Shown piece by piece: positions 1 to 62,265 of a stretch of 64,000 nt of DNA. The stretch's first letter is position 1. Each line of letters starts with the position of its first letter. The position numbers were made by a program, and so were the translations under genes. The notes below the pieces were generated by a model, which saw only the letters and a program-made list of their open reading frames with translations, ran no database searches and was not told the origin of the DNA. Source of the DNA: an uncultured Candidatus Saccharibacteria bacterium (GTDB lineage Bacteria > Patescibacteriota > Minisyncoccia > Phycocordibacterales > PCTT01); contig CAZMIM010000001.1 of NCBI GenBank assembly GCA_964566505.1, positions 65,140-129,139 of the forward strand, given 5' to 3'.

Positions 1-1115
1 GAGCGCAAATCATTTGCATGATTTAACAGAACAAAGATGGGTGTGTTAATTGCAGCCCATGAATATGCACCTCCTCTCTTTCCTTTTCTTGGGAAAAAGT
101 CTATTTGTCCATTTTTTAAAAATTCTTCAAAAACATCCTTGTATACTCCCCCCATTTTCTCTAGTGCATTTGAGAAAATTTTGATTGAGTCTTCTGCAGA
201 AAATTTTCTCTTGATTTTCCCGACTGGCGCATGTCTATCAACATAATAAAAATCTTTCAAACCAGTCATTTTCTTTTTCAGGCGGAAAAACTTTTTACTT
301 GCCGAGTAGTTACCAGCCACAGCATCTCGCAAAGCAAATACAACATCTTTGTCCATTTCATCCCCCTTCATTCTTTCTTCCAGAAGATAAGTATAACCTC
401 GTAAATTATCTTCAATTTTTTTGTTTGTTATAAGTGCATTTATTTCACTTTCAGCAAAATCAGTGGTTTCTTCCAACAAATTATCAAGGAGCTCTCTAAT
501 CTTTCTTCTATCTTTTGTATTCAATTTTGTGAGTTTAGAAGACGCTTCTGTTAAAGAGAGCTTCTCCCCTTTAAAAGTTATAGTTTTTTTGTGTAGAGAT
601 TTTTCTCTTCCTTGTGTCCACATACTACTACTTACGCCAGACTTTAGATTGAGAATCTTTTCTTCATCTTCAGACAAAAGATATTTTGTGTTTTCAAAAA
701 AGTTCTCAAGTAGATATTTATACTCTTTTAGATTGGGGTCTTTTAAAAACTTTTTCTGATTTGCTTTTGTTACATCTTTAAAAGACACGTTATAAAAAGT
801 AATATTGTTATATGCCTTGCGAAGCCGCTCGGAAAACAAATTGATTTTTGATTTTATTTTTGTATTAGTGCTGTCCAAATCCTCACTAAAATGTAAATAC
901 ATCATTGGACGTGGAAGTTCAAAATGTTTTTCTCTCTCTTGCATTACCTTTTTTAGCTCTTTTGCGTCTGTAAGATACTTGCGATTGTTTTTATACTTTT
1001 TCGCAAAAGATGAATATGCACGTTCAATTTTTTGTACATCTTTTTCGAGTTGTGGGTCATCTATTGATTTATACAACCGCTTAAGATCCCATTCTGTTTT
1101 GTAACCTTTTTTCAT
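1..1115 (-). CDS. pepF: Oligoendopeptidase F (M3B family), N-terminal part. The gene continues past the window start, which is why it is absent from the ORF track.
   Basis: Manual minus-strand translation from ATG at 1115..1113 gives an uninterrupted frame to position 1: MKKGYKTEWDLKRLYKSIDDPQLEK...GKRGGAYSWAAINTPIFVLLNHANDL, a PepF-like N-terminus with the GKRxGAYS motif. The plus-strand ORFs listed in this region are low-complexity antisense. Confidence 0.8.
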   Translation of the reverse strand, partial: MKKGYKTEWDLKRLYKSIDDPQLEKDVQKIERAYSSFAKKYKNNRKYLTDAKELKKVMQEREKHFELPRPMMYLHFSEDLDSTNTKIKSKINLFSERLRKAYNNITFYNVSFKDVTKANQKKFLKDPNLKEYKYLLENFFENTKYLLSEDEEKILNLKSGVSSSMWTQGREKSLHKKTITFKGEKLSLTEASSKLTKLNTKDRRKIRELLDNLLEETTDFAESEINALITNKKIEDNLRGYTYLLEERMKGDEMDKDVVFALRDAVAGNYSASKKFFRLKKKMTGLKDFYYVDRHAPVGKIKRKFSAEDSIKIFSNALEKMGGVYKDVFEEFLKNGQIDFFPRKGKRGGAYSWAAINTPIFVLLNHANDLR

Positions 1116-1116
1116 C

Positions 1117-1722
1117 TTATTTTTTCTTATTTTTAAAACGTTTTAGTAATTCAAAATCTTTTTCTAATACTGGTAGTTGCTTGCGATTATATATCGCAAC
1201 TGCCGGATGGTACAGAGGTAGAATATACATATCACCCCAGGACTGCTCTGTCTTAAAGAGTCTTCCTCGTCCTTGGCTAATCGGTAGCACTTCATCTGAA
1301 AGTCCAAACTGCTCCATAATATACTCCATTGAGTACCTACCAAGTGTAGCGATAACTTTTGGTTGGATGATTTCTATTTGCCGGAGAAGAAATGGGGTAT
1401 AGAGAGCTATTTCTTCTTTGCTTGGATCACGATTGTCTTGTGGGCGGTCTTTTACAATATTTGTAATATAAACATCTTCTCTATCGAGCTTTATATGCGC
1501 AAGTAGCCCATCAAGTACTTTCCCTGAAGCCCCACAAAATGGCCTTCCTGTTTGTGCTTCGTTTTTACCTGGAGCCTCACCGATAAAAACAATATCTGCA
1601 TCTGTATTTCCCTCACCTACTACTGGCACATAATCGTTTGAAACACGATATTCATAAAGTGGCGACTCTTTGAGAGCCACCAATTCATCTTTTATTTTCT
1701 CCATTTTCTTATCCTTCGTCAT
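1117..1722 (-). CDS. Uracil-DNA glycosylase, family 4
   Basis: GEAPGKNEAQTGRPFCGASGKVLD and HPAV motifs typical of family 4 UDG; stop abuts the pepF start. Confidence 0.85.
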   Translation of the reverse strand: MTKDKKMEKIKDELVALKESPLYEYRVSNDYVPVVGEGNTDADIVFIGEAPGKNEAQTGRPFCGASGKVLDGLLAHIKLDREDVYITNIVKDRPQDNRDPSKEEIALYTPFLLRQIEIIQPKVIATLGRYSMEYIMEQFGLSDEVLPISQGRGRLFKTEQSWGDMYILPLYHPAVAIYNRKQLPVLEKDFELLKRFKNKKK

Positions 1723-2640: not shown

Positions 2641-3441
2641 TTAAAAAAGTGTGTCTGGGCTACTCTCTTTGCTCTCATTTGAAGAGTCTCCGTTTTCCTC
2701 AAGTACAACATCAACAGCCTTTCTGTATGTACAATACTCACAGTCCTCGCCTTGCTCTGGAGCACTTTCTTTATCAAGTGTCTCTTTTGCACGCAAAAGC
2801 GCGTCATCTACCCATGAGTCGTCTCCTTCATAAGGGATAACCTTCATACGAAACTCGAGCACTCCTGAAAATGTTTCTTTATCACGCCGTCCATTTGCAT
2901 ACACAAAATACCCTACCGGTGAGACTTTGAATCCGTTTTGTCGAAGTAGCCATTGGTACACCTCCATTTGTCTTTTATATCCATCCTGCCAATCTGCATC
3001 TAGTGTTACTTCCTCGTCTTTTGATGTTGCTTTGTAGTCCACAACGATAAGCTCTCCATCTGGGTTGACCCACACATCATCGACTGCACCTGAAACGGTA
3101 AGACCTGTTGGTTTGTGAAATGTATCAACGCCCTTGAAGTTGTCGCGCCAAATATCCATGTCCTTGTGGGCAAATGGCACTGCATCAATACCAAAGCGTG
3201 TCATAAGTGGATGCGGACTCTGTGCACGACGATGTGCATCAAACTCTTTTTTGAGAAGCTCATCAACTGCACTGTTGAGGTTGAATGGATACCCACGAGG
3301 TCGTGCAGTGCCTAGCTTGTTGTCGATATAAAAACAGCGCGGGCACTCGATAAAAAGATCGAGTTTTGAACGTGAAAGTCGCCAATTTGGGCCACCATAA
3401 TTCCACTTTTCATTTCGGTGCGGTTTATAAAACGAAGCCAT
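2641..3441 (-). CDS. PD-(D/E)XK nuclease with Fe-S cysteine cluster (Cas4-like / DUF83-type); no CRISPR nearby
   Basis: N-terminal CPRCFY, central VVDYKATS (D..K nuclease motif) and C-terminal CEYCTYRK cysteines match the Cas4/AddB 4Fe-4S nuclease architecture. Confidence 0.6.
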   Translation of the reverse strand: MASFYKPHRNEKWNYGGPNWRLSRSKLDLFIECPRCFYIDNKLGTARPRGYPFNLNSAVDELLKKEFDAHRRAQSPHPLMTRFGIDAVPFAHKDMDIWRDNFKGVDTFHKPTGLTVSGAVDDVWVNPDGELIVVDYKATSKDEEVTLDADWQDGYKRQMEVYQWLLRQNGFKVSPVGYFVYANGRRDKETFSGVLEFRMKVIPYEGDDSWVDDALLRAKETLDKESAPEQGEDCEYCTYRKAVDVVLEENGDSSNESKESSPDTLF

Positions 3442-3483
3442 AATACAGACATTGTACCACGCACCCTAATAACCCAAAACAAA

Positions 3484-3510
3484 GTTTGGGAAGGTCAGAC
3501 CTTCCCAAAC
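3484..3510. repeat. REP-like palindrome, family 1 (GTTTGGGA-N11-TCCCAAAC)
   Basis: gtttgggaaggtcagaccttcccaaac; perfect palindrome. Confidence 0.9.
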
Positions 3511-3511
3511 A

Positions 3512-3550
3512 AAAACCAACGGCTCATATTCAAAATGAGCCGTTGGTTTT
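3512..3550. terminator. Hairpin family 2 (AACGGCTCA-loop-TGAGCCGTT); bidirectional terminator-like
   Basis: aaaccaacggctcatattcaaaatgagccgttggtttt. Confidence 0.7.
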
Positions 3551-3588: not shown

Positions 3589-4242
3589 CTATCGAGGTGT
3601 TCCTGAGAATGTTTGGAATGTTGTCATTACCTCTACAGCATCTGCTGTTTGGTATGGTACATCTTGAGTAAAATCAAACTCTCGATCTCCGTTGTCTGAG
3701 TGAAGCTTTACATAGTAAAGACTATCAGCAACGGTTCCGCGAAGAAGCGGTACATCTACATCCGCAAATTCACCTGCGTCATAAATGCGTGCCCCAAGAA
3801 TGCTTCCTGGTACTCCCTCGTTATCTTCAAATACTACTACCCATGATGTTCTATCAAGTGATAGTGCTGAGACAGCTACTGTGTCTCCAAAATTTTGATC
3901 TTCTACAGCTAGAACTACTTCTGTTTCAAGTGTTACTGGCTCTGCAGGAGTATCTGAGTGAGTATCTGCCATGTACTCATCCTCCATCATTGTGTCTGCG
4001 TCTTCAAGCGCCTCATCATTTGAACCTGCGTTTCCTGTACCAAATACAAGAAATCCGATTCCAAATCCGATAAGAACACCTAAGATTGCAACAACAATCA
4101 TTTTCTTTGTGTCATTTTGTGTATTATTTTCCATATCTTCTTCAATATTTATATCAGCGAGAGATGGTTCGTGATTGTTGTTATACTCCTCCTGAAGTGA
4201 ATCAACATCCTCATCATTTCCATCAAATGGGATAATTTCCAT
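3589..4242 (-). CDS. Hypothetical single-pass membrane protein
   Basis: One hydrophobic helix (VVAILGVLIGFGIGFLVFG); acidic termini; no recognised domain. Confidence 0.5.
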   Translation of the reverse strand: MEIIPFDGNDEDVDSLQEEYNNNHEPSLADINIEEDMENNTQNDTKKMIVVAILGVLIGFGIGFLVFGTGNAGSNDEALEDADTMMEDEYMADTHSDTPAEPVTLETEVVLAVEDQNFGDTVAVSALSLDRTSWVVVFEDNEGVPGSILGARIYDAGEFADVDVPLLRGTVADSLYYVKLHSDNGDREFDFTQDVPYQTADAVEVMTTFQTFSGTPR

Positions 4243-4358
4243 ACAAAATCTGATAAAACTTATAATTTTCCTAACAATCTGCCCTTATTATAGACCAAAG
4301 TACAAAAAAAGTGCAGAAATGCACTGTAATGATGAAAATTTCAAGAAAAGTCAATAAA

Positions 4359-5210
4359 TTAAACCTCCTTTCCAGCTTTGTAGAGCTGTTCTATTTCTTT
4401 TATAACTTTTGCTTGGTCTTCGTCTGAGAGACCAATATGAGAAAGAACCTGAGGTTTTTCTTTTACAGTTTTACACAAAACAATATCCTTTCCTAAAAGC
4501 CTCTTTTTATTTTCTTGTGAAAGAGTAGTAAGACATGTAATAGGTTGAAGACCACTTTCTTCTATCATTTCTTGTAGATTACCTTTATCAGGATATGACC
4601 ACCCAATAAGTGTAATACCGGCACATTTACCATACGCAATGGCGTTGTGAGTAAATTTTGTATTAGTCATTAACCAAAATGAATGCTTCTTACCGCATGA
4701 CAATATATCCTCACATTTTCCAATCATAAGATCGTCATATCGTGCCTTTACATAAAGTGCCACTTTCATGTCAGACTTCACACCAGGCTTGTTATGAAAC
4801 TTTGCCTCAATGGTTATATAGTTTTCATCATCTTCTGCCAAAATATCTATCTCATGTGTCGCACACTTTCCTTTTAGAATTTTTCCAATCTGTGTTGTAT
4901 AGCCACGTTCAGTAAGAACCCTTTCCATAAACTGCTCAAAAGGGAAACCACTTGGCCCCAAATCCATGATAGCCCTTCTTAGTGAATAGCTAGCTGCAAC
5001 TCCTGCCCTTAGATTGCTTAATTGTGCAAAAGCGGCTTTATATATTTCTTGTGTAGTATCTCCGTCAGATATCTCTTGATTCACAAAAGAAAGCACATCT
5101 GCGACCTCTGTTTCATTCGCACCTGATCTTTTTAAAGAACGCATGAGCTTCTCTTCTCGAAATGGCTCCTGCGTTCCGTCTGCTTTTGTGATTATCACCT
5201 GACGAGACAT
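4359..5210 (-). CDS. ATP-cone domain protein fused to an Mrr-like (PD-(D/E)XK) restriction-endonuclease catalytic domain
   Basis: N-terminal ATP-cone-like segment (ITKADGTQEPFREEKLMRSLKRSG), followed by GY...HEIDILAEDDENYITIEAKFH, which resembles the Mrr_cat D/E-K core. Confidence 0.55.
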   Translation of the reverse strand: MSRQVIITKADGTQEPFREEKLMRSLKRSGANETEVADVLSFVNQEISDGDTTQEIYKAAFAQLSNLRAGVAASYSLRRAIMDLGPSGFPFEQFMERVLTERGYTTQIGKILKGKCATHEIDILAEDDENYITIEAKFHNKPGVKSDMKVALYVKARYDDLMIGKCEDILSCGKKHSFWLMTNTKFTHNAIAYGKCAGITLIGWSYPDKGNLQEMIEESGLQPITCLTTLSQENKKRLLGKDIVLCKTVKEKPQVLSHIGLSDEDQAKVIKEIEQLYKAGKEV

Positions 5211-5711: not shown

Positions 5712-5760
5712 ACGTCCTCTCTTAAATAATAAAACCATCTTTAGTATATCACAGGATATA

Positions 5761-6816
5761 TTATGGAAGTATTTCCTCTATAATTCCCCCACCTACACAC
5801 TCATTATCTCGATATAACACCAGAGATTGCCCTACAGCAACAGCTTTTTGAGGTTCATTGAAAGTCGCTGTATTGCCATCAAGCTTGCATGGGAAAAGTG
5901 TTTGTCTATATCGAAGACGCGCCTGATATCCACCATCAGCATTGTCTTTGCGCATAACCATATCGCAAAGCTTTACAGACGATGCGTTGAATACCGGGTT
6001 GTCCTTTCCCTCTTTGTCAGACACGGTGATGGTGTTTTGCTCTATATCTTTTGAAACCACAAAATACGGCTTGTCATTTGGTGTCTTTTTTGTAATTCGG
6101 AAACCTCTTCGCTCACCAATGGTAAAAAATAATGCGCCGTCATGCTCACCAATCACAACACCCTCTTCATTCAAAACATTACCTTTTTCCTCTTTTATAT
6201 AGTGCGTTAGAAAATCCTTCATAGAAATATCTCCAAGAAAACATATTCCCTGACTATCTTTTTTAGAAGCAGTAGAAAGTCCTTCTTTTTCTGCAATGGC
6301 TCTTACTTCGCTCTTTTGGAGATGACCTACTGGAAAGAGAACGTGTGAAAGCTGTTCTTTTGTGAGTGTCCAAAGAAAATACGACTGATCTTTTCCTTCA
6401 TCTGCCCCCGCAACAAGAGCGTCGCCTATATTTTTTGCATAGTGGCCTGTAGCAACATAGTCTGCGCCATTTAGAAGTGCCCACTTTAGAAAACCTCCAA
6501 ACTTTACATATCTATTACACATCACATCTGGATTTGGTGTTCTACCCTTTTTATACTCAGAAATCATATAGTCTGCGACTTCCTCTTTATACTCTTTACT
6601 CAAATCAAGCTCATGAAATGGAATATCTAGATGTGCACATACACGCATTGCATCACGACGCTCTTCTTTCCAGTTACACTCCAAAAACTCCGGGTACCAC
6701 ACCTTTATAAAAACTCCTTCTACGTCGTAGCCCGCTTCTTTTAGTAGATGTGCAGACACAGAAGAATCTACACCACCCGAGAGACCTACATATACTTTTT
6801 TATTCGTGTTACTCAT
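5761..6816 (-). CDS. mnmA: tRNA-specific 2-thiouridylase
   Basis: PP-loop SGGVDSSV, conserved Cys and overall MnmA length. Confidence 0.9.
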   Translation of the reverse strand: MSNTNKKVYVGLSGGVDSSVSAHLLKEAGYDVEGVFIKVWYPEFLECNWKEERRDAMRVCAHLDIPFHELDLSKEYKEEVADYMISEYKKGRTPNPDVMCNRYVKFGGFLKWALLNGADYVATGHYAKNIGDALVAGADEGKDQSYFLWTLTKEQLSHVLFPVGHLQKSEVRAIAEKEGLSTASKKDSQGICFLGDISMKDFLTHYIKEEKGNVLNEEGVVIGEHDGALFFTIGERRGFRITKKTPNDKPYFVVSKDIEQNTITVSDKEGKDNPVFNASSVKLCDMVMRKDNADGGYQARLRYRQTLFPCKLDGNTATFNEPQKAVAVGQSLVLYRDNECVGGGIIEEILP

Positions 6817-8858: not shown

Positions 8859-9350
8859 TTATTCTGCTGATTCTTCAGTTGGAGTTTCTCCAGTAGCCTC
8901 TTCTACTGGCGCCTCCTCAGCTGGTGTTTCCTCTACAGGATCTTCTTCTGCTGGCGCTTCCTCGGCAGGAGTTTCTTCTGAAGGTGTTTCCTCAGCCAGA
9001 CTCTCGTCCTGAGTAGCCTCTGGAGCTTCTGCTGGAGTCTCTTCTGCCGGTGTTTCCTCTGGCTTCTCGCTTACAATAGGAGATTTCTTTGGTAGAACAT
9101 TCTTGGCCTTTCCTTCGATGATTCCCTCTTTTACCAAAAGGTTGTGAACTGTATCAGAAAGCTGTGCACCTACTGACATCCAGTGCTTTACTCTATCACC
9201 CTTAATCTCACGCGTATCTGTTCGCGCATCATATGAACCAAGGTTCTCAATATATTTACCGCTCTTAGGACCACGATGTTTTTCTGTAACCACCACTCGA
9301 TATGATGGATCGTGCTTTCGCCCTACTCGCTTTAATCTAATTTTTAACAT
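8859..9350 (-). CDS. rpsP: 30S ribosomal protein S16 with a long acidic Glu/Thr/Pro/Ala-rich repetitive C-terminal extension
   Basis: MLKIRLKRVGRKHDPSYRVVV is the canonical S16 N-terminus; the C-terminus carries EETPAEE-type repeats encoded by an imperfect tandem DNA repeat. Confidence 0.9.
   Translation of the reverse strand: MLKIRLKRVGRKHDPSYRVVVTEKHRGPKSGKYIENLGSYDARTDTREIKGDRVKHWMSVGAQLSDTVHNLLVKEGIIEGKAKNVLPKKSPIVSEKPEETPAEETPAEAPEATQDESLAEETPSEETPAEEAPAEEDPVEETPAEEAPVEEATGETPTEESAE
8870..9012. repeat. Imperfect tandem repeat (period ~45 bp) encoding the acidic tail of S16
   Basis: Repeating units ctggcgcctcctcagctggtgtttcctc... / ctggcgcttcctcggcaggagtttcttc... Confidence 0.6.
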
Positions 9351-9419
9351 GGCGCACATAATAACAGAATAAAGATTACTACGCAATAGCACTCTCTTCT
9401 GTTACAATAGACAAACTTT

Positions 9420-11354
9420 ATGAGAGAAACTCCACATACTGGAAGCACAATAGAAGGCAAGCTACAGACCACGTCACGAGGCGTGGGCTATCTTTCTTAT
9501 GACGAAGAGGCAAAAGATATAGAAATCCCAGAAGACAAGACGTACACAGCACTTCACGGAGACACTGTCGTGGTGCGTATTACACACAGTGACAGTGAGC
9601 GTGTGTATGGAGAAGTAATAAAAGTATTAGAGCGTGGTGCAAAACTTTTCTCTGGAACACTTGAGCAAGAGGCTGGGCACTTCTTTCTAATGACAGACAA
9701 CCATCGAATTCACCGGGATATTCTTGTGGCACCAGATGAGCGACTAAAAGAAGGATACAAAGCAGTGGTACGCTTCCTTTCTTGGAACACTACACACGAT
9801 GACCCTAAAGGAGAGCTTGTGTCTATTTTGGGTAGAAAGGGAGAACACGAAGCAGAAATGCAATCAATTATCGTGGGGCGTGGGATTGTTTACGACTTCC
9901 CTGTTGAAGTAGAAAAAGAAGCAAAAGAAATCAAAGCAAACGAAGCAAAAATCTTTCAAGATGCAGAAAACGACCCTCGCCGAAAAGATATCCGAGACAT
10001 TCCTACATTCACCATCGACCCAGACAGTGCAAAAGACTTTGATGATGCTCTTTCTATTCGAACACTACAAAATGGAAACCTGGAGATTGGTATTCATATT
10101 GCTGATGTATCTCACTATGTACAAGAAGGAAGTGCGCTAGACCAAGAAGCACAATCACGAGGATTTTCTACATACCTAGTGGATAGAACCATCCCGATGC
10201 TTCCTGAAGTACTTTCAAACGACCTTTGTAGTCTCAACCCGCATGTCGACCGACTCGCCTTTTCTGCAATATTTGAAATGACTCATAGTGGACAAGTAGA
10301 GAGCTCTTGGTATGGAAAAACAATCATTCACTCAGACAAACGGTTTACATACGAAAATGCACAAGAACAGATTGACGCTGGAGATGGTGAATACTCAGAG
10401 CCACTAATAACTCTAAATGGAATAGCAAAAACACTGCGAGCACGAAGATTTTCAAAAGGTGCAGTGGACTTCTCTGATGACGAAGTAAAGTTTGAGCTCA
10501 ATGACAAGGGCGAAGTAATGCGTGTGTATAAAAAAGAGCGGCTTGATACTCACAAACTTGTGGAAGAGTTTATGCTTCTTGCTAACCGCTCTGTAGCAGA
10601 GAAAATAGAAAAACTGTGTGAAAACTCAGGCCACGATCACCTTTTTGTATACAGAATCCACGACCTACCAGATAGAGAAAAACTTTCCGAGCTTGGCACA
10701 TTTCTTAAAGCTCTTGGATACCGATTTGAGGTGCCAAATGAAGTAAGCGGAACAGACCTAAACAAACTACTAGAGCAAGTGAAGGACAAACCAGAGGAAG
10801 GTTTGGTAAATACAGCGCTTATTCGCTCTATGGCAAAGGCTGTATACTCTACCGCTAACAATGGACACTTTGGGCTGGCATTTGAGCACTACACACACTT
10901 CACATCGCCTATCCGTAGATACCCTGACCTTATTGTGCACCGACTTCTATTTGCACATCTTCATAACGAGAATATTACTCAAAGAGAGATAGACCTCTAT
11001 GAAAGCATTATCTCTAAATCAACTGACAAAGAGATTAATATTATGCAAGCAGAGCGTGAGAGTATTAAATACAAGCAAGTAGAGTTCCTAAAAGATCGTG
11101 TGGGTGAGACATTTGATGTATTAGTAACAGGAGTTTCAGACTTTGGACTCTTTGTGGAAGAGAAAGAAACACGAGCACAGGGACTCATTGCTATTAGAAA
11201 TCTAGGAAATGATTTCTTTGAGCTTCGAGAGAAACAATTTGCAATAGTTGGTAAAAGCAGTGGTCAAAAGTTTACACTCGGGCAAACACTCAAAGCAAAG
11301 CTCACTGGAGCAGACCTAGACAAGCGTCAGCTCGACTTCCGTCTCCAAAACTAA
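9420..11354 (+). CDS. rnr: Ribonuclease R (RNase II/R family, with C-terminal S1 domain)
   Basis: RNB-domain motifs (DPDSAKDFDDALS, HFTSPIRRYPDL) and a C-terminal S1-like region. Confidence 0.9.
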   Translation: MRETPHTGSTIEGKLQTTSRGVGYLSYDEEAKDIEIPEDKTYTALHGDTVVVRITHSDSERVYGEVIKVLERGAKLFSGTLEQEAGHFFLMTDNHRIHRDILVAPDERLKEGYKAVVRFLSWNTTHDDPKGELVSILGRKGEHEAEMQSIIVGRGIVYDFPVEVEKEAKEIKANEAKIFQDAENDPRRKDIRDIPTFTIDPDSAKDFDDALSIRTLQNGNLEIGIHIADVSHYVQEGSALDQEAQSRGFSTYLVDRTIPMLPEVLSNDLCSLNPHVDRLAFSAIFEMTHSGQVESSWYGKTIIHSDKRFTYENAQEQIDAGDGEYSEPLITLNGIAKTLRARRFSKGAVDFSDDEVKFELNDKGEVMRVYKKERLDTHKLVEEFMLLANRSVAEKIEKLCENSGHDHLFVYRIHDLPDREKLSELGTFLKALGYRFEVPNEVSGTDLNKLLEQVKDKPEEGLVNTALIRSMAKAVYSTANNGHFGLAFEHYTHFTSPIRRYPDLIVHRLLFAHLHNENITQREIDLYESIISKSTDKEINIMQAERESIKYKQVEFLKDRVGETFDVLVTGVSDFGLFVEEKETRAQGLIAIRNLGNDFFELREKQFAIVGKSSGQKFTLGQTLKAKLTGADLDKRQLDFRLQN

Positions 11355-11381
11355 GTTTGGGAGAGTCAGACTCTCCCAAAC
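11355..11381. repeat. REP-like palindrome, family 1
   Basis: gtttgggagagtcagactctcccaaac, between convergent rnr and the LOG gene. Confidence 0.9.
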
Positions 11382-11382
11382 A

Positions 11383-11417
11383 AAAACCAACGGCTCAAGA
11401 GTGAGCCGTTGGTTTTT
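11383..11417. terminator. Hairpin family 2
   Basis: aaaaccaacggctcaagagtgagccgttggtttttt. Confidence 0.75.
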
Positions 11418-12146: not shown

Positions 12147-12208
12147 TATATTTCTCTTAGGAACATAGTGAGTTAGAGAAATATAACCCGCTACATTTTT
12201 TAAATATA

Positions 12209-12463
12209 TTATTTTTTAAGTGTATCTTTTAGATTTTTATATAAAAATCTTCTACCCCATCCTGATTTTAAATATTTTTCTCTTCGCATAGCGTTAGATT
12301 GGGAAAGATACATTTCTAAGTATACCAGCTTCCAAGGTCTATTGCCTTTAGTTGATAAAACCTTACCTTCATTATGCAGTCTTAATCTTTCCTTTATATC
12401 ACTAGAATAACCAATATATAACTTACTATCTTTTTTACTTTTTAATACATAGACGCTATGCAT
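12209..12463 (-). CDS. GIY-YIG nuclease family protein (UPF0213-like)
   Basis: VYVLKSKKDSKLYIGYSSDIKERLRLHNEG matches the GIY-YIG core. Confidence 0.8.
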   Translation of the reverse strand: MHSVYVLKSKKDSKLYIGYSSDIKERLRLHNEGKVLSTKGNRPWKLVYLEMYLSQSNAMRREKYLKSGWGRRFLYKNLKDTLKK

Positions 12464-12613
12464 ATGTTTAAAAAATGAGGAGGGTATTTAGAAAATCCGC
12501 ACAAACTTTTAGCATACAAACAATCTACCAAATTTGAGATAATTCGCACAAACTTTTACTACGTAAAACTTAGGCAGATAAATAAAATATAGTCGCCTTG
12601 CTCCTTATTTTAT

Positions 12614-14779
12614 TTACTTCGCTACTTTCACCGCCTCATCAAACTCAATAGAAAGCAATCGTGAAATACCGTCATGTTGCATAGTCACTCCATATAGTAG
12701 GCCTGCTCGTGACATAGTCTCTCTGTTGTGAGTAATGAGAATAAGTTGTGAGTACTCTGAAAGAGAGTTGATCATATCTCCATATCTCTTTGAGTTTGCT
12801 TCATCAAGAGCTGCGTCTGTCTCATCTAGGATAATAAATGGAGGTGGATTGATTTGTGAAAGCGCAAATAGAAGTGCAATAGATGTAAGGGCCCGCTCAC
12901 CACCAGAAAGCATCTCTAGTGAGCGAATCTTTTTCTTTGGAAGATTTACATCTATCTCCACGCCCTCTACCACATCGTCCTCTTCATCTTCTGATGTCTG
13001 CTTTTTCTTCTCAAGGAAAAGGCTTGCATTACCTCCTCCGAACATCAATGAGAAAAATGAATCAAACTGTCCATTAATACGCTCAAGCCCTTCTTTGAAT
13101 CGGGTATCGAGTGTGTTGTCTATCTCTTTTATAAGCTCCTCCAGAGACTGCTTTGTACTCTTTAGGTCGGCAAGCTCTTTTGAAAGAAACTCGTCACGCT
13201 CCTCTACCTCTTTGTGCTCTGTGCGCACCTCGTTGAAAGAGCCAATACCAAAATCTTCAAGTTTTACCAAAAGTCTGTCTATCTCCTTTGAGCGTCTTTG
13301 CTGATCTCCCTCATCACCTGCCGGGTCTACATCTACATACATAGTAATCTCTCGCCCATACTTCATGCCTGCCTCCATAAGATCCTGCTCAAACTGTTTA
13401 CCGCGCTCGCGAAGAAGTGCCTTCTTTTGCTCCAAATCAGCAAGTGTCGCTCGCAATTCTTTTTCTCGAGACATTACCTTTACCAAATCACGCTCAGCTC
13501 GGTAAAACTCGCTTCGCTCTTCCTCTGCTTTGTGTGATATGTCTGATTGCTTTTTAAGAAGCTCTTCTTTTTCCATATCTAACGCCTCTATCTCTCGCTC
13601 TATCGCCTTTCGCTTTTCATCTAGAAGCGAAGTGTCTACTTCTTCGGCTGGTGCCTCTGTCTTTAGCTCCGTTTTTACATCTGCAAATTCCTCTTTTATA
13701 AATGAAAGAAGTGTTTTTACAGCGGTGGCATCAGAAAGTGTTGTGTTTTGGATTTTCTCTTCTATTTTTGTAATAAGCTTGAGAACCTTTTGTCCTGAGA
13801 TGGCTTTTCCTTGTGTGAGCTGTGTGTGCTTCATAAGTCGCTCCTGTGCCTCTATTTCTCCCTCTACACGCCCCAAATCACGCGTGAGTATGTTTCGCTT
13901 GTGTGAGATATCTTTTAGCTCTCGCCCAATACGGTTGAGCTCTTTGTGATGCTCTGACTCGTCCTGTGTATCATCGAGAATCTTTTGAAGTTCTTTTACT
14001 TCATTCTCAATATTTTTAAGCTCTCCACGCGGAACCGCAATTTTCCCATCAAGTCTTGCTTGCTCTGTCTCAAGATATTTCTCTTCGTATGAGAAATACT
14101 CTTTATAAAGTGTAATAAGCTCATCACGAAAAGCCTGAGCTTTCTCTCCCTTTTCTACCTGTTTTTTAAGAAATGTTAGGTGTGGCTTTATCTCTCTTCG
14201 GAGCGATTCTACTTCTTTGATGTTTTGCTCGGTGCGTGAGAGCTTTGAAATACTGTCTTTTCGTTTCAAATGATATACACGAAGCCCTAGTGCGTCCTCT
14301 ATCATTGAACGTCGCTCTTTTGGAGATACATTAAGTATTCTGTCTGCCTCTCCTTGAGAAATAATATGATGTCCAGTAGAGCCAATGTTTGCACGAGCCA
14401 GAAGCTCTGCAATATCTTTCCTGCGCACCTTTGAGTCGTTTATACGATACTCGTGTGTTCCGTCTCGGTGCACTACACGCTCTATCACTACATCGTCATA
14501 ATCAATATCAAAAAGTTTATTTCTGTTATCAAGCACCACTCTTACGCTTGCTCTATTTGAGCGCTGTCCTCCACCTGAACCATTGAAAATAAGATCCTCA
14601 CTTCGCTTTCCTCGAAGTGATTTCATAGACTGCTCACCAAGCGCAAATCGAAATGCCTCTGCTACATTTGATTTTCCTGAACCATTTGGTCCTACGATTG
14701 CAGAAATGGGAGTTTTAAAGTCGAGTTTTGATTTTTTACCGAATGATTTGAATCCGGCAATCTCGATAGATTTAAGCAT
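12614..14779 (-). CDS. smc: SMC-family ATPase, short (721 aa) and apparently hinge-less
   Basis: SMC_N head (FKSFGKK...IVGPNGSGKSNVAEAFRFALGE); C-terminal signature LSGGERALTSIALLFAL and Walker B ILDETDAALD; ~500 aa of coiled coil between them with no glycine-rich hinge motif. Confidence 0.75.
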   Translation of the reverse strand: MLKSIEIAGFKSFGKKSKLDFKTPISAIVGPNGSGKSNVAEAFRFALGEQSMKSLRGKRSEDLIFNGSGGGQRSNRASVRVVLDNRNKLFDIDYDDVVIERVVHRDGTHEYRINDSKVRRKDIAELLARANIGSTGHHIISQGEADRILNVSPKERRSMIEDALGLRVYHLKRKDSISKLSRTEQNIKEVESLRREIKPHLTFLKKQVEKGEKAQAFRDELITLYKEYFSYEEKYLETEQARLDGKIAVPRGELKNIENEVKELQKILDDTQDESEHHKELNRIGRELKDISHKRNILTRDLGRVEGEIEAQERLMKHTQLTQGKAISGQKVLKLITKIEEKIQNTTLSDATAVKTLLSFIKEEFADVKTELKTEAPAEEVDTSLLDEKRKAIEREIEALDMEKEELLKKQSDISHKAEEERSEFYRAERDLVKVMSREKELRATLADLEQKKALLRERGKQFEQDLMEAGMKYGREITMYVDVDPAGDEGDQQRRSKEIDRLLVKLEDFGIGSFNEVRTEHKEVEERDEFLSKELADLKSTKQSLEELIKEIDNTLDTRFKEGLERINGQFDSFFSLMFGGGNASLFLEKKKQTSEDEEDDVVEGVEIDVNLPKKKIRSLEMLSGGERALTSIALLFALSQINPPPFIILDETDAALDEANSKRYGDMINSLSEYSQLILITHNRETMSRAGLLYGVTMQHDGISRLLSIEFDEAVKVAK

Positions 14780-14841
14780 TATAAAGATAGTATACAGTAT
14801 TTAGTATTTGGTATGTAGTATAAAATAAAGCCCGTGAGAAC

Positions 14842-15132
14842 ATGATCTCTAACAAAATGTTTGGGAGAACCCGGTTCTCCCAAACATTGACAAAGGAACA
14901 TCGAAGTAGTAGTTTTTGGAAAACTGTACAAACCAAACAAACGGTGAATCAAGTGGCTAAAAGAAAAGGGCCGGGTAAAAGAAAGGGTAAGTCTTCCCGA
15001 CACCCTCGCAATGTGTCCAAAAAAGTCGAAAGATGGAGAGTCAATGTTAGTTATTATGGGAGCAGATATGATCCGATAAAAATTCAGCACGGCCACAATC
15101 CAAGACCTTTCAAAAAGAAGAGGAAAATCTGA
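14842..15132 (+). CDS. Possible small Lys/Arg-rich protein (96 aa); doubtful
   Basis: ORF overlaps the REP-like palindrome at 14859-14885 and is very basic; its stop TGA overlaps the next ATG (ATGA). No recognisable family. Confidence 0.2.
   Translation: MISNKMFGRTRFSQTLTKEHRSSSFWKTVQTKQTVNQVAKRKGPGKRKGKSSRHPRNVSKKVERWRVNVSYYGSRYDPIKIQHGHNPRPFKKKRKI
14859..14885. repeat. REP-like palindrome, family 1 (variant centre)
   Basis: gtttgggagaacccggttctcccaaac. Confidence 0.9.
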
Positions 15133-15271
15133 TGCCATCTCGTAGGAATCGAAAGAAGTCCAAAGCCGTTCGCGAACGGAACAATCGCAAAAGGCGTTTG
15201 AAAATCCTCAGAGAAACAAAAAACGATTATCGTGAGCGACGTCGTCGTGGGAAAAAATTCAACATCTACTA
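15131..15271 (+). CDS. Possible small Arg/Lys-rich protein (46 aa), translationally coupled to the preceding ORF; doubtful
   Basis: MPSRRNRKKSKAVRERNNRKRRLKILRETKNDYRERRRRGKKFNIY, followed by the family-3 hairpin at 15297-15335. Confidence 0.2.
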
Positions 15272-15296
15272 GAGTTGAATTTACTTCCACTAAAAA

Positions 15297-15335
15297 GCCC
15301 GCCCAAATTTCACATAGTGAAACTTAGGCGGGCTT
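15297..15335. repeat. Hairpin family 3 (AGCCCGCCTAAnTTTCAC-N3-GTGAAAnTTAGGCGGGCT)
   Basis: agcccgcccaaatttcacatagtgaaacttaggcgggct. Confidence 0.75.
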
Positions 15336-15353
15336 TATTGTTTATTTGCAAAA

Positions 15354-15380
15354 GTTTGGGGAAGTCAGACTTCCCCAAAC
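15354..15380. repeat. REP-like palindrome, family 1 (variant)
   Basis: gtttggggaagtcagacttccccaaac. Confidence 0.9.
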
Positions 15381-15406
15381 AAAAACTAACTCCTATTGGC
15401 TAGTCA

Positions 15407-16117
15407 CTAGTTGCTAGCATCATTCCATCCTTGATGTTCAAGTGCTTTTCTTGCTGCCTCTTGTTCTGCTTCTTGCTTTGATTTTCCAGCTCCTTCTGCA
15501 ACTCGCTCATTTTCAAAATACACCGCCACAGTAAAGTGCTTGTCATGGTCTGGCCCACGCTCTTTTACAGTATCGTATCGTGGTGTTACTGAGAGCTCTT
15601 CTTGAGCTTTCTCTTGTAGAAAGCTCTTTGCGTCTTGCCATAGTCTGTTCTCTACAATCTCATCTGTCAGGTCAAATAGTGTGTTTGAGATAAACTTCTT
15701 AGCATTTTCATATCCGCTATCAAGATAAATAGCACCAATAATTGCCTCAAAAGCATTTGCAAGAATATATTGCCGTGCACGCCCTGTGTCTTTTGACTCT
15801 CCCTTTGAAAGAAGTAGATAATCATTTACACCAAGCTTCCGTGCTGCTTCTGAAATAGTCTGTGTATTTACAAGCGCTGCTCGTACTGCTGTCAGCTCTC
15901 CCTCTGGCTTGTCTGGATACTTTTCAAAAAGATACTCTGTTATTACAAGCTCCAAAACTGCATCTCCAAGAAACTCAAGACGCTCGTTGTGCTTTATATT
16001 TTTTTGTTTGTGCTCATTTACATATGAGCGGTGCGTAAACGCACGACGAATCAAGTCCTCATTAGCAAATGTAATACCAATGTGTTCCTGAAACGCTTTA
16101 AAATCTTTTTCAATCAT
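15407..16117 (-). CDS. rnc: Ribonuclease III
   Basis: ERLEFLGDAVLELVITEYLF signature and a C-terminal dsRBD. Confidence 0.92.
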   Translation of the reverse strand: MIEKDFKAFQEHIGITFANEDLIRRAFTHRSYVNEHKQKNIKHNERLEFLGDAVLELVITEYLFEKYPDKPEGELTAVRAALVNTQTISEAARKLGVNDYLLLSKGESKDTGRARQYILANAFEAIIGAIYLDSGYENAKKFISNTLFDLTDEIVENRLWQDAKSFLQEKAQEELSVTPRYDTVKERGPDHDKHFTVAVYFENERVAEGAGKSKQEAEQEAARKALEHQGWNDASN

Positions 16118-16124
16118 ATTTTTA

Positions 16125-17030
16125 TTATTCCTTTTCTGGATGCAGGAGTAAGTCAGCTGCCTTTGTCACAATTGGGAAGATATCTTCATAAAAATTAAGA
16201 TGCACAATCTCCTCGAGTGGGAACCATCGAGAATCATCGAGTCCCGATTTGTCCTCAGTACTCTTTAGCGGGCTATATGGTGCTTCTGCAAGGAAGTACC
16301 GCACCTGCTTTCTGATTTTTCCTTTCTCTGGATGAGAAGAAATATATTCATTGTCTCCAAGAAGTGGACCTATAGTAATAGGTAGACCCATCTCCTCATC
16401 TATCTCTCGGATAGCTGTCTCTTCGAAACTTTCGTTTCCTTCTACCTTTCCTTTTGATAGTGTCCAGTGGCCAAAAATGTCATGAACAAATGCCATGTAT
16501 ATATTTTCTTCGTGACGTGCATATACCACCGCACCTGCAAGTTTTACTATTTCCATCTCTTCGTATGGAATATCTTTTTTCTTTGCGCTTTTTTCATCTT
16601 TCCCCGGCTCTCCTATCTCTCGATATACAGAACCTAGCACTCCGTTTACAAACTTACCGCTTGATTCTCCTCCAAAATTCTTTGCGAGCTCTATGGCCTC
16701 GTTGATAGCCACCTTTGGTGGAACATCTTTTCTGTCACCATACAAAAGCTCATATAGACCTATTCTAAGAATATTTCGATCTACATTTGCAATTTTTTCT
16801 ATTGGCCAATCTGGTGCGGCCTTGGAGATTACCTCATCGAGTTTGTCTTTTTTATCTATCACTCCTGTAAGGAGGCTATTCATGTACGCATCATCAGCAG
16901 TACCAGGAGCAAATTCTTCCTGATTCCGCTTTAATATTTCTTCAAGTGGTTCGTGAGAATCATTTTCTCGCAAATCCCACTCAAAGAGTGTTTGCATTAT
17001 TATTGAACGTGATAAATGTCTTCCTGCCAT
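16125..17030 (-). CDS. nusB: NusB (N-utilisation substance B) N-terminal domain fused to a C-terminal NUDIX hydrolase domain
   Basis: NusB core (SRSIIMQTLFEWDL...NVDRNILRIGLYELLY...PPKVAINEAIELAKNFGGESSGKFVNGVLG), then a Nudix box GHWTLSKGKVEGNESFEETAIREIDEEMGL. Confidence 0.75.
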   Translation of the reverse strand: MAGRHLSRSIIMQTLFEWDLRENDSHEPLEEILKRNQEEFAPGTADDAYMNSLLTGVIDKKDKLDEVISKAAPDWPIEKIANVDRNILRIGLYELLYGDRKDVPPKVAINEAIELAKNFGGESSGKFVNGVLGSVYREIGEPGKDEKSAKKKDIPYEEMEIVKLAGAVVYARHEENIYMAFVHDIFGHWTLSKGKVEGNESFEETAIREIDEEMGLPITIGPLLGDNEYISSHPEKGKIRKQVRYFLAEAPYSPLKSTEDKSGLDDSRWFPLEEIVHLNFYEDIFPIVTKAADLLLHPEKE

Positions 17031-17404: not shown

Positions 17405-17440
17405 GCATTATATGATAAATCTTTGAAAACGCAAGAGAAA

Positions 17441-17479
17441 AGCCCGCCTAATTTTCACGCTGTGAAATTTAGGCGGGCT
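17441..17479. repeat. Hairpin family 3
   Basis: agcccgcctaattttcacgctgtgaaatttaggcgggct, between rpmF and the upstream gene. Confidence 0.8.
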
Positions 17480-17503
17480 CTAATGAATGTCTCGAGAATT
17501 GGG

Positions 17504-18559: not shown

Positions 18560-18588
18560 GAACGGCTCATTTTCAAAATGAGCCGTTC
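18560..18588. terminator. Hairpin family 2
   Basis: gaacggctcattttcaaaatgagccgttc, downstream of rnhB. Confidence 0.7.
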
Positions 18589-28353: not shown

Positions 28354-28386
28354 TCAACGGCTCATTTTGAAAATGAGCCGTTGCTT
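28354..28386. terminator. Hairpin family 2
   Basis: caacggctcattttgaaaatgagccgttgctttt. Confidence 0.7.
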
Positions 28387-46934: not shown

Positions 46935-46959
46935 CAGGAGCTACTCCACTCTCACAATC

Positions 46960-46998
46960 AAACGGCTCAGGAGTTCAAAACCTGAGCCGTTTTTTGTT
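46960..46998 (+). terminator. Hairpin family 2; tonB terminator
   Basis: aaacggctcaggagttcaaaacctgagccgttttttgttttt. Confidence 0.8.
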
Positions 46999-47019: not shown

Positions 47020-47076
47020 GTTTGGGAAGGTCTGACCTTCCCAAACTAAGAGTGTGAGAGTCAGACTCTCCCAACC
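47020..47076. repeat. REP-like palindrome, family 1: one full copy plus an adjacent half copy
   Basis: gtttgggaaggtctgaccttcccaaac, then gagagtcagactctcccaac. Confidence 0.85.
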
Positions 47077-59732: not shown

Positions 59733-61223
59733 ATGAAAGGGCTTGCGGAACTCACAAAAAAAATACAACCACTTTCAAAAAAAGATGAAAAGCGTTTGGC
59801 GCAGAGCTATAGCTTTGCAAAGCAAGCCCACAAAGGACAAACACGATATTCAGGAGAACCATATTTCAATCATGTATATGAGACGGCTTCACTTCTTGCA
59901 GACATGGGAATGTCTGTAGAGACAGTGATAGCTGGACTTTTGCACGACACAATAGAAGACGCAGAAGTAACAGATGAAAGTATCTCATCACTCTTTGGAG
60001 AGGAGGTGCTTTTTTTGGTTAAGGGTGTAACAAAGCTTGGAAAGATTCGCTATCACGGTGTAGAACGACACGTAGGAAGCCTTCGTAAACTATTTCTTGC
60101 TACATCTTCTGACCTTCGTGTTCTCATAATTAAACTTGCCGATAGGCTCCACAACATGCGCACACTCGAGCATGTTCCAGAAGAAAAACAAAGAAGAATC
60201 GCTCTTGAAACAATGGAGGTGTACGCACCTATTGCCCACCGACTCGGTATGGGAAAGCTTATGGGAGAGCTACAAGACCTTTCATTTCCATATGTATATC
60301 CAGAAGACTATGTGAAAGTAAAAGAGCTTGCTGAGCAAAAGAGAAAAGAAAAGACAGCAAAGCTCAAAGAGCTATATAAAGAACTTGAGAAATCGCTTAA
60401 AAAAGAGAAAGTGTCTGACATCACTATCGACTACCGACTCAAGCATATGTACAGCATTTATGAAAAGCTGAAAAGAAAAGACTGGGACATTAACAGGGTG
60501 TATGACATTTCTGCGCTTCGTATTATTGTTCCTACTGTTAGTGACTGCTACAAAGTACTTGGTGTGGTTCATGGAATATGGCGACCACTTCCTGGGCGCA
60601 TAAAAGACTATATTGCATTTCCAAAACCAAACGGATACCAAAGCATCCACACTACTATTTTTACAGGAGACGGAGACATTGCAGAGATACAAATACGAAC
60701 CGCAAAAATGCACCAAGAGGCAGAATACGGAGTGGCATCTCATGCAAACTATAAAAAAGATGGTGGTGGTTTGATGTCGCTAGAATGGTTTGGAACACTT
60801 CTAGGTCAAAAGCCAACTCAGCATGATGAAGAAGAAAAAGAGGCGCCAGAGTGGATTAAAGAACTTGCAAACACACAAGAATACACCGATGAGCCAGATG
60901 AGTTCCTAAACAATCTAAAGACAGACTTCTTTAGTGATAGGCTTTTTGTATTTACACCACTTGGAGATGTTATCGACCTTCCACAGGGTTCTACTCCAAT
61001 TGATTTTGCTTATCATGTTCACACACATATTGGAAACCATACTTTTGGTGCAAAAGTTAATGGGAAGTTTACCTCACTTGAGAGTGAACTTAAAAACGGT
61101 GACATTGTAGAGATTATCACCAAAGAAAAAAGCCACCCGACAACCAAGTGGCTCGACGCTGCAAAGACAACTCTTGCACGACGACATATTAAAAGTTATT
61201 TGCAGTCACAAAAATCTAAATAG
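59733..61223 (+). CDS. rel: (p)ppGpp synthetase/hydrolase RelA/SpoT family (short: HD, synthetase and TGS domains)
   Basis: HD motif (LLHDTIEDAEV), RelA_SpoT synthetase motifs and a C-terminal TGS; 496 aa. Confidence 0.88.
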   Translation: MKGLAELTKKIQPLSKKDEKRLAQSYSFAKQAHKGQTRYSGEPYFNHVYETASLLADMGMSVETVIAGLLHDTIEDAEVTDESISSLFGEEVLFLVKGVTKLGKIRYHGVERHVGSLRKLFLATSSDLRVLIIKLADRLHNMRTLEHVPEEKQRRIALETMEVYAPIAHRLGMGKLMGELQDLSFPYVYPEDYVKVKELAEQKRKEKTAKLKELYKELEKSLKKEKVSDITIDYRLKHMYSIYEKLKRKDWDINRVYDISALRIIVPTVSDCYKVLGVVHGIWRPLPGRIKDYIAFPKPNGYQSIHTTIFTGDGDIAEIQIRTAKMHQEAEYGVASHANYKKDGGGLMSLEWFGTLLGQKPTQHDEEEKEAPEWIKELANTQEYTDEPDEFLNNLKTDFFSDRLFVFTPLGDVIDLPQGSTPIDFAYHVHTHIGNHTFGAKVNGKFTSLESELKNGDIVEIITKEKSHPTTKWLDAAKTTLARRHIKSYLQSQKSK

Positions 61224-62265
61224 AGAAATTGCTGATTGAGTATAGATCCTCTTCCCCGCTCTCTTCCTCTTTTTGCTCTTCTTTGGCTGGCAAATCACCG
61301 AGCGCATCAGATGCAGAGAGAACTGTTTTTTGCTCTGACACATAGTAGAGCTTTGGCTCATACATTCCTACTTTATCTGGTGTAGTGCCAGACTCTTCTA
61401 TAAATCTATCCATCATTGCTGATGTAGATTTTTTCTCGTCAGTACTTTTTACCAAATCCAAAATACTCTCAAGGTCTTGTGGTGAGAAGAAGTCGATAAC
61501 AATACGCCCACCAATATCTTTTTGTTCAATCTGTACTCGAGTACCAAGAGACTCTGCGAGCTTCTCCTCCATCTTTATTATAGTTGGATCAACTGTTCGC
61601 TCTTTCTTTCGCACCTTGTCATAGGCAATACGGCGCGCAATAGACTCTGCCTGGCGAACTGTTAGCTTTTTGTATACAAGCTCTTTAAAGAGTGTTTTTT
61701 GCTGTTCTGGACGGTCATCAAGCATGAGTAGTGGTCGTGCATGACCTTCTTTTATGCGTCCTTGGATAATGGCATCCAAAACATCTTCAGGCAAAATAAG
61801 AAGCCTGATAGAGTTTGAAACATACTCTCGTGAACGACCCACCTTTTCTCCGATTTGTGCATGTGTGAAGTTAAACTCTTCTGCAAGTTGTTTGAATGCT
61901 CGGGCGCGGTCTATTGGGTTTAGGTCTTCTCGTTGGAGGTTCTCGATAATAGCAAGCTCGAGCTTTTCACGAGCGCTTTGTTGTCCGCTTCTGATGATTA
62001 CCGGCACTTGAGAAAGGCCTGCGATTTGTGATGCTCGGTGTCGTCTCTCTCCTGCAATAAGCTCATATTCAACACTAATACCACCGTCTTCATTTACGAT
62101 TTCATTTCGTGTTACCACAAGAGGTTGAAGCACTCCATACTGACGAATGGAATCTGCCAAATCATTGAGTCGCGCCTCGTCAAACTCTTTTCGTGGCTGA
62201 TATGGGTTGGGAACTATCTTTGTTACTTCCACCCAAAAAATTGCATTTTCGTGAAAATTTGCCAT
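61216..62265 (-). CDS. parB: ParB/Spo0J-family partition protein (no adjacent parA)
   Basis: ParB box GERRHRAS and an HTH; 3' end overlaps rel by 8 nt. Confidence 0.85.
   Translation of the reverse strand: MANFHENAIFWVEVTKIVPNPYQPRKEFDEARLNDLADSIRQYGVLQPLVVTRNEIVNEDGGISVEYELIAGERRHRASQIAGLSQVPVIIRSGQQSAREKLELAIIENLQREDLNPIDRARAFKQLAEEFNFTHAQIGEKVGRSREYVSNSIRLLILPEDVLDAIIQGRIKEGHARPLLMLDDRPEQQKTLFKELVYKKLTVRQAESIARRIAYDKVRKKERTVDPTIIKMEEKLAESLGTRVQIEQKDIGGRIVIDFFSPQDLESILDLVKSTDEKKSTSAMMDRFIEESGTTPDKVGMYEPKLYYVSEQKTVLSASDALGDLPAKEEQKEEESGEEDLYSISNFSI

Follow-up and report, generated by a model that had tools for sequence, protein, structure and literature searches.

The repetitive extragenic palindromic (REP) elements of Proteobacteria are imperfect palindromes of about 20–40 nt, of which a genome holds many copies. 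They carry a conserved 5' GTAG-like tetranucleotide head that is recognised by REP-associated tyrosine transposases (RAYTs), Y1/IS200-like enzymes whose genes typically have REPs on either side. Very small basic proteins are known from ribosomes (eL41, bS22, bTHX), and RNA-binding peptides with an arginine-rich motif (ARM), for instance at the N-terminus of lambdoid N proteins, are Arg/Lys-rich helices with few hydrophobic positions. By analogy, these systems come close to features of a 627-bp gap between the RNase III gene rnc and smc, which we analysed in 64,000 nucleotides from an uncultured bacterium of the Patescibacteria (Parcubacteria/Paceibacteria) type (assembly GCA_964566505.1, contig CAZMIM010000001.1, positions 65,140–129,139; this whole stretch is called the window, and coordinates refer to it). 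The gap holds two palindromes and two small, very basic open reading frames (ORFs), ORF A and ORF B, which a first-pass annotation had taken for a REP-bounded cassette. We favour, with a probability of roughly 0.55, another explanation: that the gap is a lineage-specific filling containing a small plus-strand unit, that ORF B is a genuine gene missed by annotation, and that the palindromes are not the ends of a cassette.

ORF B (15132–15272, plus strand) encodes 46 residues with an isoelectric point (pI) of 12.0 and 48% Lys and Arg, and is predicted to form a single alpha-helix. Searching the loci of the closest relatives by tblastn, we found a homologue in the locus L170 (JGI Ga0136261_1000165), whose RNase III is 72% identical to that of the source genome. 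This 44-codon ORF, running from GTG 4371 to 4240 on the minus strand of its locus and reading MSKRQRGKRPKCTRVRKHKKRRLKELRETSNDRKGRGRYSYGRW, has no gene call in the JGI record (4237–4371). It lies like ORF B in the rnc–smc junction and opposite in strand to rnc; it starts inside an EamA gene, whose last 23 nt it overlaps in a different frame, and a GGCCCCG/CGGGGCC hairpin comes after it. The two products are colinear over their full length at 43% identity, with 11 of 13 positions shared in the core KRRLKxLRETxND. Their Smith-Waterman score was 88, against 35.9 ± 5.7 for shuffled sequences, and none of 20,000 shuffles reached it. The L170 ORF was moreover the sole profile match in the six-frame translation of all fetched loci (1.66 million residues), and over all fetched DNA the real ORF B query scored 85, whereas the best scores of 120 shuffled queries were 55.4 ± 3.6, with a maximum of 66.

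The similarity is confined to one reading frame and has the pattern of a protein. DNA identity between ORF B and the L170 ORF is 48%, distributed over the three codon positions as 0.46/0.64/0.33, and dS, the synonymous divergence, is saturated; among 39 aligned residues 19 are identical, 13 of them encoded by different codons (e.g. AGG/CGC, TTG/CTC, AGA/CGC), whereas identities fall to 8/38 and 6/38 in the two remaining frames. Because this match is significant, frame-specific and accompanied by synonymous divergence, ORF B is probably a genuine protein-coding gene that annotation has missed. A codon-likelihood test trained on the window, in which the per-codon scores of all 39 confident genes range from +0.10 to +0.74 in the correct frame (leave-one-out) and do not exceed -0.17 in wrong frames, gave ORF B a borderline +0.11, the best of its six frames, and a synonymous log-ratio, which sets genome codon preference against local base composition, of +4.8 bits. 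The case is good, though made on a single instance, and what it probably describes is a fast-evolving gene for a small basic protein. The earlier view that no conserved gene lies between the palindromes was thus not quite right, since ORF B has one homologue; and the suggestion that the two ORFs encode small nucleic-acid-binding proteins gains from this frame-specific relative at the same locus as regards ORF B as a protein, and is not supported for ORF A.

The same evidence bears on the possibility that the gap is a non-coding spacer whose A-rich sequence produced both ORFs by chance. ORFs this long occur on the A-rich plus strand in 4–6% of dinucleotide shuffles, so that length by itself is weak evidence for a gene; codon statistics are weak, no gene caller ever called either ORF, and family and structure matches are nil. 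A chance ORF would hardly have a homologue at the same junction that is significant over all fetched DNA and specific to one frame, with saturated synonymous sites, and at this divergence (RNase III 72% at the protein level, ORF B 48% at the DNA level) no similarity would be left in neutral DNA. We therefore regard an origin of both ORFs by chance as improbable.

Several points weigh against our favoured explanation. The codon score of ORF B lies at the very bottom of the range of real genes, and that of the L170 homologue is -0.23 (small local training set). Only one homologue was found, which makes a two-member "family" present at 2 of about 175 related loci. No gene call exists for ORF B or its homologue: exact look-ups came back empty, though rnc of the source genome is present, and neither has a match at E <= 10 in Pfam, NCBIfam or PHROG, nor did sequence searches of the PDB yield anything significant. 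The proposed function of ORF B draws on composition and on a helix that AlphaFold2 (AF2) predicted from a single sequence, and the candidate promoter of the unit is recognised solely by its consensus, its -10 box being weak.

No start variant of ORF A, ORF B or the antisense ORF was recorded in a collection of 15 billion proteins, in which the neighbouring rnc is present; since rnc is recorded and no ORF of the gap is, annotation pipelines left the gap unannotated. A word-indexed search of 5.8 billion proteins found no match for either ORF, and was too insensitive for ORF B, which has just one 5-residue word in common with its homologue. Viral and metagenome contigs and GenBank phages gave no match to either ORF, to the alignment of ORF B with its homologue, to the palindrome or to the back-translated motif.

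The ORF B peptide carries a net charge of about +17; its conserved aliphatic positions number just two, and aromatic residues are found close to the C-terminus. AF2 predicted one helix spanning residues 4–43 (predicted local distance difference test, pLDDT, 86), so that the peptide is most likely one long helix, and its best PDB profile match, not significant (E = 0.13), was the RRLKELRE helix of eL19. Given this composition and the predicted helix, binding to nucleic acid, probably RNA, is the most economical inference. A bolder extension, which we consider speculative and improbable, is that ORF B and its L170 relative would found an unrecognised family of Paceibacteria, made of Arg/Lys-rich single-helix proteins of about 45 residues that are invisible to gene callers and word-indexed searches; these would act as RNA-binding or ribosome-associated accessories in organisms with reduced ribosomes, and would be translated by termination-reinitiation from any upstream ORF, Shine-Dalgarno initiation being scarce.

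ORF A is a different case. In its longest form it runs from ATG 14842 to 15132 on the plus strand (96 residues, pI 11.9, 29% Lys and Arg), so that the two very basic plus-strand ORFs of 96 and 46 residues reported in the first-pass annotation are indeed there. However, the first 37 codons of the 96-residue form cross the left palindrome and the promoter-like site, which makes GTG 14953 (14953–15132, 59 residues) or GTG 14944 (62 residues) the realistic start. The stop and start of the two ORFs do overlap, not as ATGA but as TGATG, with the TGA of ORF A at 15130–15132 and the ATG of ORF B at 15132–15134 sharing one base.

This overlap is an argument for reading both ORFs as real and translationally coupled, in a two-gene operon of small basic nucleic-acid-binding proteins. 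When ORF B was kept constant, only 0.4% of shuffles (p = 0.004) placed before it an ORF of 59 codons or more whose stop met the ORF B start as UGAUG; in addition, GGTGA stands 5 nt before GTG 14953, a promoter-like site lies 38 nt upstream, and both peptides have a pI of about 12. The statistics of ORF A itself point the other way, with a codon score of -0.18 per codon, against at least 0.10 in all 39 real genes, and a synonymous log-ratio of -10.4 bits, and its Arg codons (AGR 7, CGN 2) are used unlike those of ORF B (AGR 3, CGN 11; Fisher p = 0.013). An exhaustive HMMER search of 1.84 billion representatives, for which ORF A was the only query, returned nothing beyond an artefact, a 566-residue translated tandem repeat in which ten weak repeat matches added up. 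Across the related loci its best score was 59 against 54.1 ± 4.6 for shuffles, and thus no homologue emerged; nor was there a match in Pfam, PHROGs or NCBIfam. In L170 the ORF B homologue is preceded by the EamA transporter gene and not by a relative of ORF A, and the AF2 model of ORF A (single sequence) is uninformative, at a pLDDT of 65. On balance a two-gene operon of this kind is unlikely, as is a functional protein from ORF A; its translation we hold to be somewhat doubtful, and ORF A, lacking conservation, may act as an upstream ORF from which ribosomes pass on to ORF B.

On the opposite strand, the 119-residue antisense ORF (14779–15138) scores -0.17 to -0.18 per codon, as non-coding sequence does, contains the 14859–14885 hairpin and matches no family, in keeping with its earlier dismissal as junk. 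Its stop (14779–14781) overlaps the smc ATG (14777–14779) as TAATG, which mimics translational coupling; since this ORF scores as non-coding, such overlaps can arise by chance in the region.

The plus-strand unit is framed by candidate transcription signals. A sigma-70-like promoter candidate (TTGACA-17 nt-TAGTTT, 14887–14915, plus strand), identified by its consensus, starts 2 nt past the left palindrome. Where 3.0 matches to TTGACA-N16-18-TANNNT were expected, the window has 10, a number that none of 100 shuffles reached, and six or seven of the ten, read from the gene map, lie upstream of genes in the right orientation. At the other end, 22 nt past the ORF B stop, stands a GC-rich hairpin of a third repeat family, preceded by an A-tract and followed by a T-tract (15294–15336), with which the interval ends as the first-pass annotation had said and which recurs at 17439–17481. 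On the plus strand it folds with a free energy (dG) of -24.4 kcal/mol and is followed by UUUAUUGUUUAUUU, and on the minus strand it folds at -32.8 kcal/mol and is followed by UUUUU. With a GC-rich hairpin and a U-tract in both directions, it can serve as a bidirectional intrinsic terminator for both the plus-strand unit and the convergent rnc; a simple terminator scanner had missed it owing to its limits on loop and stem.

A Shine-Dalgarno-like purine block, GAAGAGGAAA (15117–15126, plus strand), lies 5 nt upstream of the ORF B ATG, and the identical 10-mer stands in L170, 6 nt upstream of the homologue's GTG; the 5' untranslated region and promoter of the unit in the window showed no significant homology to those of the L170 EamA operon (p = 0.22). 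Inspection of the sequences upstream of 37 genes found most confident genes of the window to be without a Shine-Dalgarno sequence. A -10-like TAnnnT box, often TG-extended, was seen about 9–12 nt before starts (e.g. 3441–3466, 5738–5763, 9395–9419, 14780–14804, 56557–56582). This arrangement suggests that most of these genes have leaderless or near-leaderless mRNAs, a picture that fits the detection of an anti-Shine-Dalgarno motif in only 48% of Parcubacteria (PMC9297842).

Since promoter-like and terminator signals bracket about 420 nt, the plus-strand transcript could also be a non-coding RNA of about 400 nt, or the region could be the decayed remnant of an Ocnus-like or EamA gene, such genes being present at the same site in relatives. 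At gathering threshold, Rfam recognised only three tRNAs in the whole window, and in E-value mode the region gave no more than sub-threshold hairpin noise; its fold z-scores are only -1.5 (plus) and -1.2 (minus), and its conservation with L170 is protein-like rather than RNA-like. For a pseudogene, EamA, the Ocnus-like proteins and a profile made from the latter were compared with all six frames (tblastn and a custom hidden Markov model), and the candidate was rejected, no frame giving a significant match. Junction proteins of the other relatives likewise matched no frame of the gap, and its stop-to-stop segments in all six frames had no hit in Pfam, PHROGs or NCBIfam. Either of these origins is very improbable.

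The gap separates rnc (15407–16117, minus strand, with Ribonuclease_3 and dsrm domains) from smc (12614–14779, minus strand, SMC_N). The best relatives of this RNase III come from metagenome-assembled genomes named Parcubacteria, Paceibacteria, Campbellbacteria and similar, at 75% identity or less; apart from copies of the same organism, nothing closer than 75% was found in genome, metagenome and protein collections, and one such copy (L001, a 1.4-kb Logan contig) has the region at 100% identity with an identical RNase III. The order rnc then smc is conserved across the clade. Among 67 relatives, the two genes are separated by 60 bp or less in 45 and by 189–1897 bp in 17, the ORFs inside these longer gaps being mutually unrelated.

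Relatives at 70–75% RNase III identity share a common synteny (DNA polymerase III alpha, RNase HII, NUDIX, L32, NusB-NUDIX, rnc, smc and a LOG-like gene), and nearly all of those whose contig reaches the junction differ in what it contains; the 3.9-kb contig of L175 does not settle it. Ocnus/PF05005-like genes occupy the junction in L165, L168, L166 and L170, the last with the EamA transporter in addition, while L162 and L169 carry a 93-residue orphan convergent with rnc and accompanied by a bidirectional terminator. L171 has a 131-residue gene, L173 and L174 have L9, L27 and other genes, and in L172 rnc and smc abut without an insert. Across Paceibacteria, the rnc–smc junction is thus a hot spot where small genes particular to single lineages are found.

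In base composition the gap resembles genes, with a GC content of about 0.41, and the excess of purines on its plus strand (AT skew about +0.3) mirrors what the minus-strand genes on either side show on their coding strands. The 467-bp gap downstream of smc (12147–12613) has a very low GC content (0.26–0.30), unlike the 0.41 of the 14780–15406 gap. Directly upstream of rnc, a NusB-NUDIX fusion protein of 301 residues (16125–17030) is encoded, and the fusion is kept in L162, L165, L166, L170 and L171. Upstream of smc, a TG-extended -10-like box (TGTATACT, 14789–14796, minus strand), recognised by its motif only, stands 9 nt before the ATG (14777–14779), which implies that smc may have its own promoter and a leaderless or near-leaderless start.

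Both palindromes that had been said to bracket about 500 bp are present. The left one, GTTTGGGAGAACC-C-GGTTCTCCCAAAC (14859–14885), is a perfect palindrome of 27 nt that forms a 15-bp stem with its flanks (RNA dG -22 kcal/mol), and the right one, GTTTGGGGAAGTC-A-GACTTCCCCAAAC (15354–15380), equally perfect over 27 nt (dG -19 kcal/mol), lies 27 nt downstream of the rnc stop. They belong to a larger repeat family, here called family 1, whose pattern TTTGGG-N13-CCCAAA was found 7 times in the window, against 0.11 expected (positions 3485, 11356, 14860, 15355, 46166, 47021 and 50288), with a degenerate eighth copy at 47051. When the eight copies were aligned, 97.1% of cells in a 13-pair stem were paired (28–56% in slid controls), and compensatory changes on both sides were seen in 5 of the 13 stem pairs, which none of 500 shuffles reached. 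All copies are extragenic with respect to the confident genes, lying downstream of gene ends or between convergent genes, and a second GC-rich hairpin of canonical terminator type adjoins five of the eight. The flanking palindromes are thus ordinary members of a genome-wide family of REP-like hairpins that accumulate beside terminators.

This family looks specific to the source genome: among the related loci only L001, the identical Logan copy, has the palindrome, none of 160 loci from other organisms does, and it is missing from the viral collection as well. No RAYT- or IS200-like gene was matched in the window by tblastn with the Y1_Tnp-like protein of L173; in L173 this protein (992–1672, minus strand; IS200/RAYT-like, with the HUH motif GNHYHLL) is encoded near the rnc locus. 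Another hairpin family (AACGGCTCA...TGAGCCGTT, with A- and T-tracts), which has the look of a bidirectional terminator, occurs at 3518–3548, 11388–11415, 18561–18586, 28356–28381 and 46955–46985, and a 53-nt composite of this family with the family-1 palindrome is 91% identical between its two sites (3474–3526 and 11345–11397).

The first-pass annotation had considered a MITE-like insertion (miniature inverted-repeat transposable element), that is, a mobile cassette inserted or moved as a unit by means of its terminal palindromes. The palindromes do stand at both ends, 495 bp apart, the unit is missing from the syntenic site in nearly all relatives, and the junction is an insertion hot spot. 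"REP-bounded" is therefore literally true, yet gives no evidence that the unit is mobile. Single copies of the palindrome, without the interior, stand at six other sites of the window, so that it is not specific to this element, and the flanking copies are not identical to each other, differing at 7 of 27 positions. The interior (14890–15290), sought at other loci as the earlier proposal had suggested, was found just once in the window and in none of 175 related loci apart from the identical L001 of the same organism. The flanks, ...CTCTAACAAAAT and AAAAACTAACTCC..., show no direct repeat and hence no target duplication, no RAYT- or IS200-like gene accompanies the unit in the window, and the ORF B homologue in L170 is not surrounded by such palindromes. 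That two of eight copies should share one gap is unremarkable (p ~0.2, our arithmetic from the gene map, the gap making up about 11% of the window's intergenic DNA of about 5.8 kb). A mobile cassette is not supported by these observations, and we hold it to be very improbable.

Our favoured explanation would run as follows. The gap would represent the lineage-specific filling of a junction that varies widely in the clade, and within it a unit convergent with rnc would be transcribed from the plus strand, from the promoter candidate through an upstream segment of about 210 nt (ORF A) and ORF B to the putative terminator. ORF B would give a highly basic 46-residue peptide, in one long helix, that binds nucleic acid, likely RNA. 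ORF A, if translated, would bring ribosomes to the ORF B start by termination-reinitiation at UGAUG, most genes being without a Shine-Dalgarno sequence, and this would require no conserved product of ORF A. What the sequences show directly is the anatomy of the gap, the palindrome family with its compensatory changes, the variable junction and the homologue of ORF B with its frame-specific conservation; the transcription and translation of the unit, the coupling role of ORF A and the binding of nucleic acid are what we infer.

If ORF B is real, gene-dense and reduced Patescibacteria genomes still hide conserved small proteins, which escape standard annotation and word-indexed homology searches and which the comparison of syntenic hypervariable junctions across genomes can recover. 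The palindromes, in turn, add a REP-like repeat family to a phylum in which such elements have, as far as the literature was searched, barely been described. Neither ORF B nor the palindrome family alters current understanding; their practical value lies in the annotation of small ORFs and in the choice of targets for ribosome profiling (Ribo-seq) or proteomics in co-cultures of the Candidate Phyla Radiation (CPR).

Two further features of the window lie away from this locus. At its end (61216–63920), a ParB-like ORF and another whose N-terminus resembles that of serine recombinases (…WKLDRLAR…), their extents taken from a mechanical list, overlap or adjoin tRNA-Leu (62369–62451), and this region may be an integrated element. 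A direct repeat with a 15-nt period and six copies (CTTCTGCTGG.G.TTCCTC-like, 8885–9060) lies inside an ORF on the minus strand (8859–9392).

In comparison with known systems, the palindromes resemble the REPs of Proteobacteria and the REP doublets forming hairpins (REPINs) in being 27-nt extragenic elements of many copies (8 in 64 kb), in lying at gene 3' ends or between convergent genes, often beside terminators, and in keeping their hairpin potential by compensatory changes. Unlike these, they have no head of the GTAG type, their consensus starting with GTTTGGG, and no RAYT transposase was found in the window; their stems are perfect, with a centre of 1–3 nt, and the doublet spacing of 495 bp is far above that of REPINs. 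The unit as a whole recalls a MITE in its length of about 520 bp, its inverted or palindromic ends and its lack of a transposase, and differs in having no target-site duplication, no extra interior copies in the window or the related loci, and ends that are not unit-specific. ORF B and its homologue share with the small basic single-helix ribosomal proteins (eL41, bS22, bTHX, bL34) and with the C-terminal helix of eL19 a length of 44–46 residues, a pI of about 12, the lack of a hydrophobic core and one predicted helix; unlike them, ORF B matches no ribosomal model of Pfam or NCBIfam significantly (including bL34, bL36, bS21 and bS22/COX24_C), lies in a variable junction instead of a ribosomal operon, and is found at 2 of about 175 loci. 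From ARM peptides it is set apart by the lack of homology and by being a free-standing protein of 46 residues. The pair of ORFs, lastly, departs from known UGAUG/AUGA termination-reinitiation pairs in that its upstream partner differs from one genome to the other and that the statistics of ORF A are those of non-coding sequence; it resembles them in the single base shared by the ORF A stop and the ORF B start, and in the fact that the L170 homologue, too, starts within the gene upstream of it.

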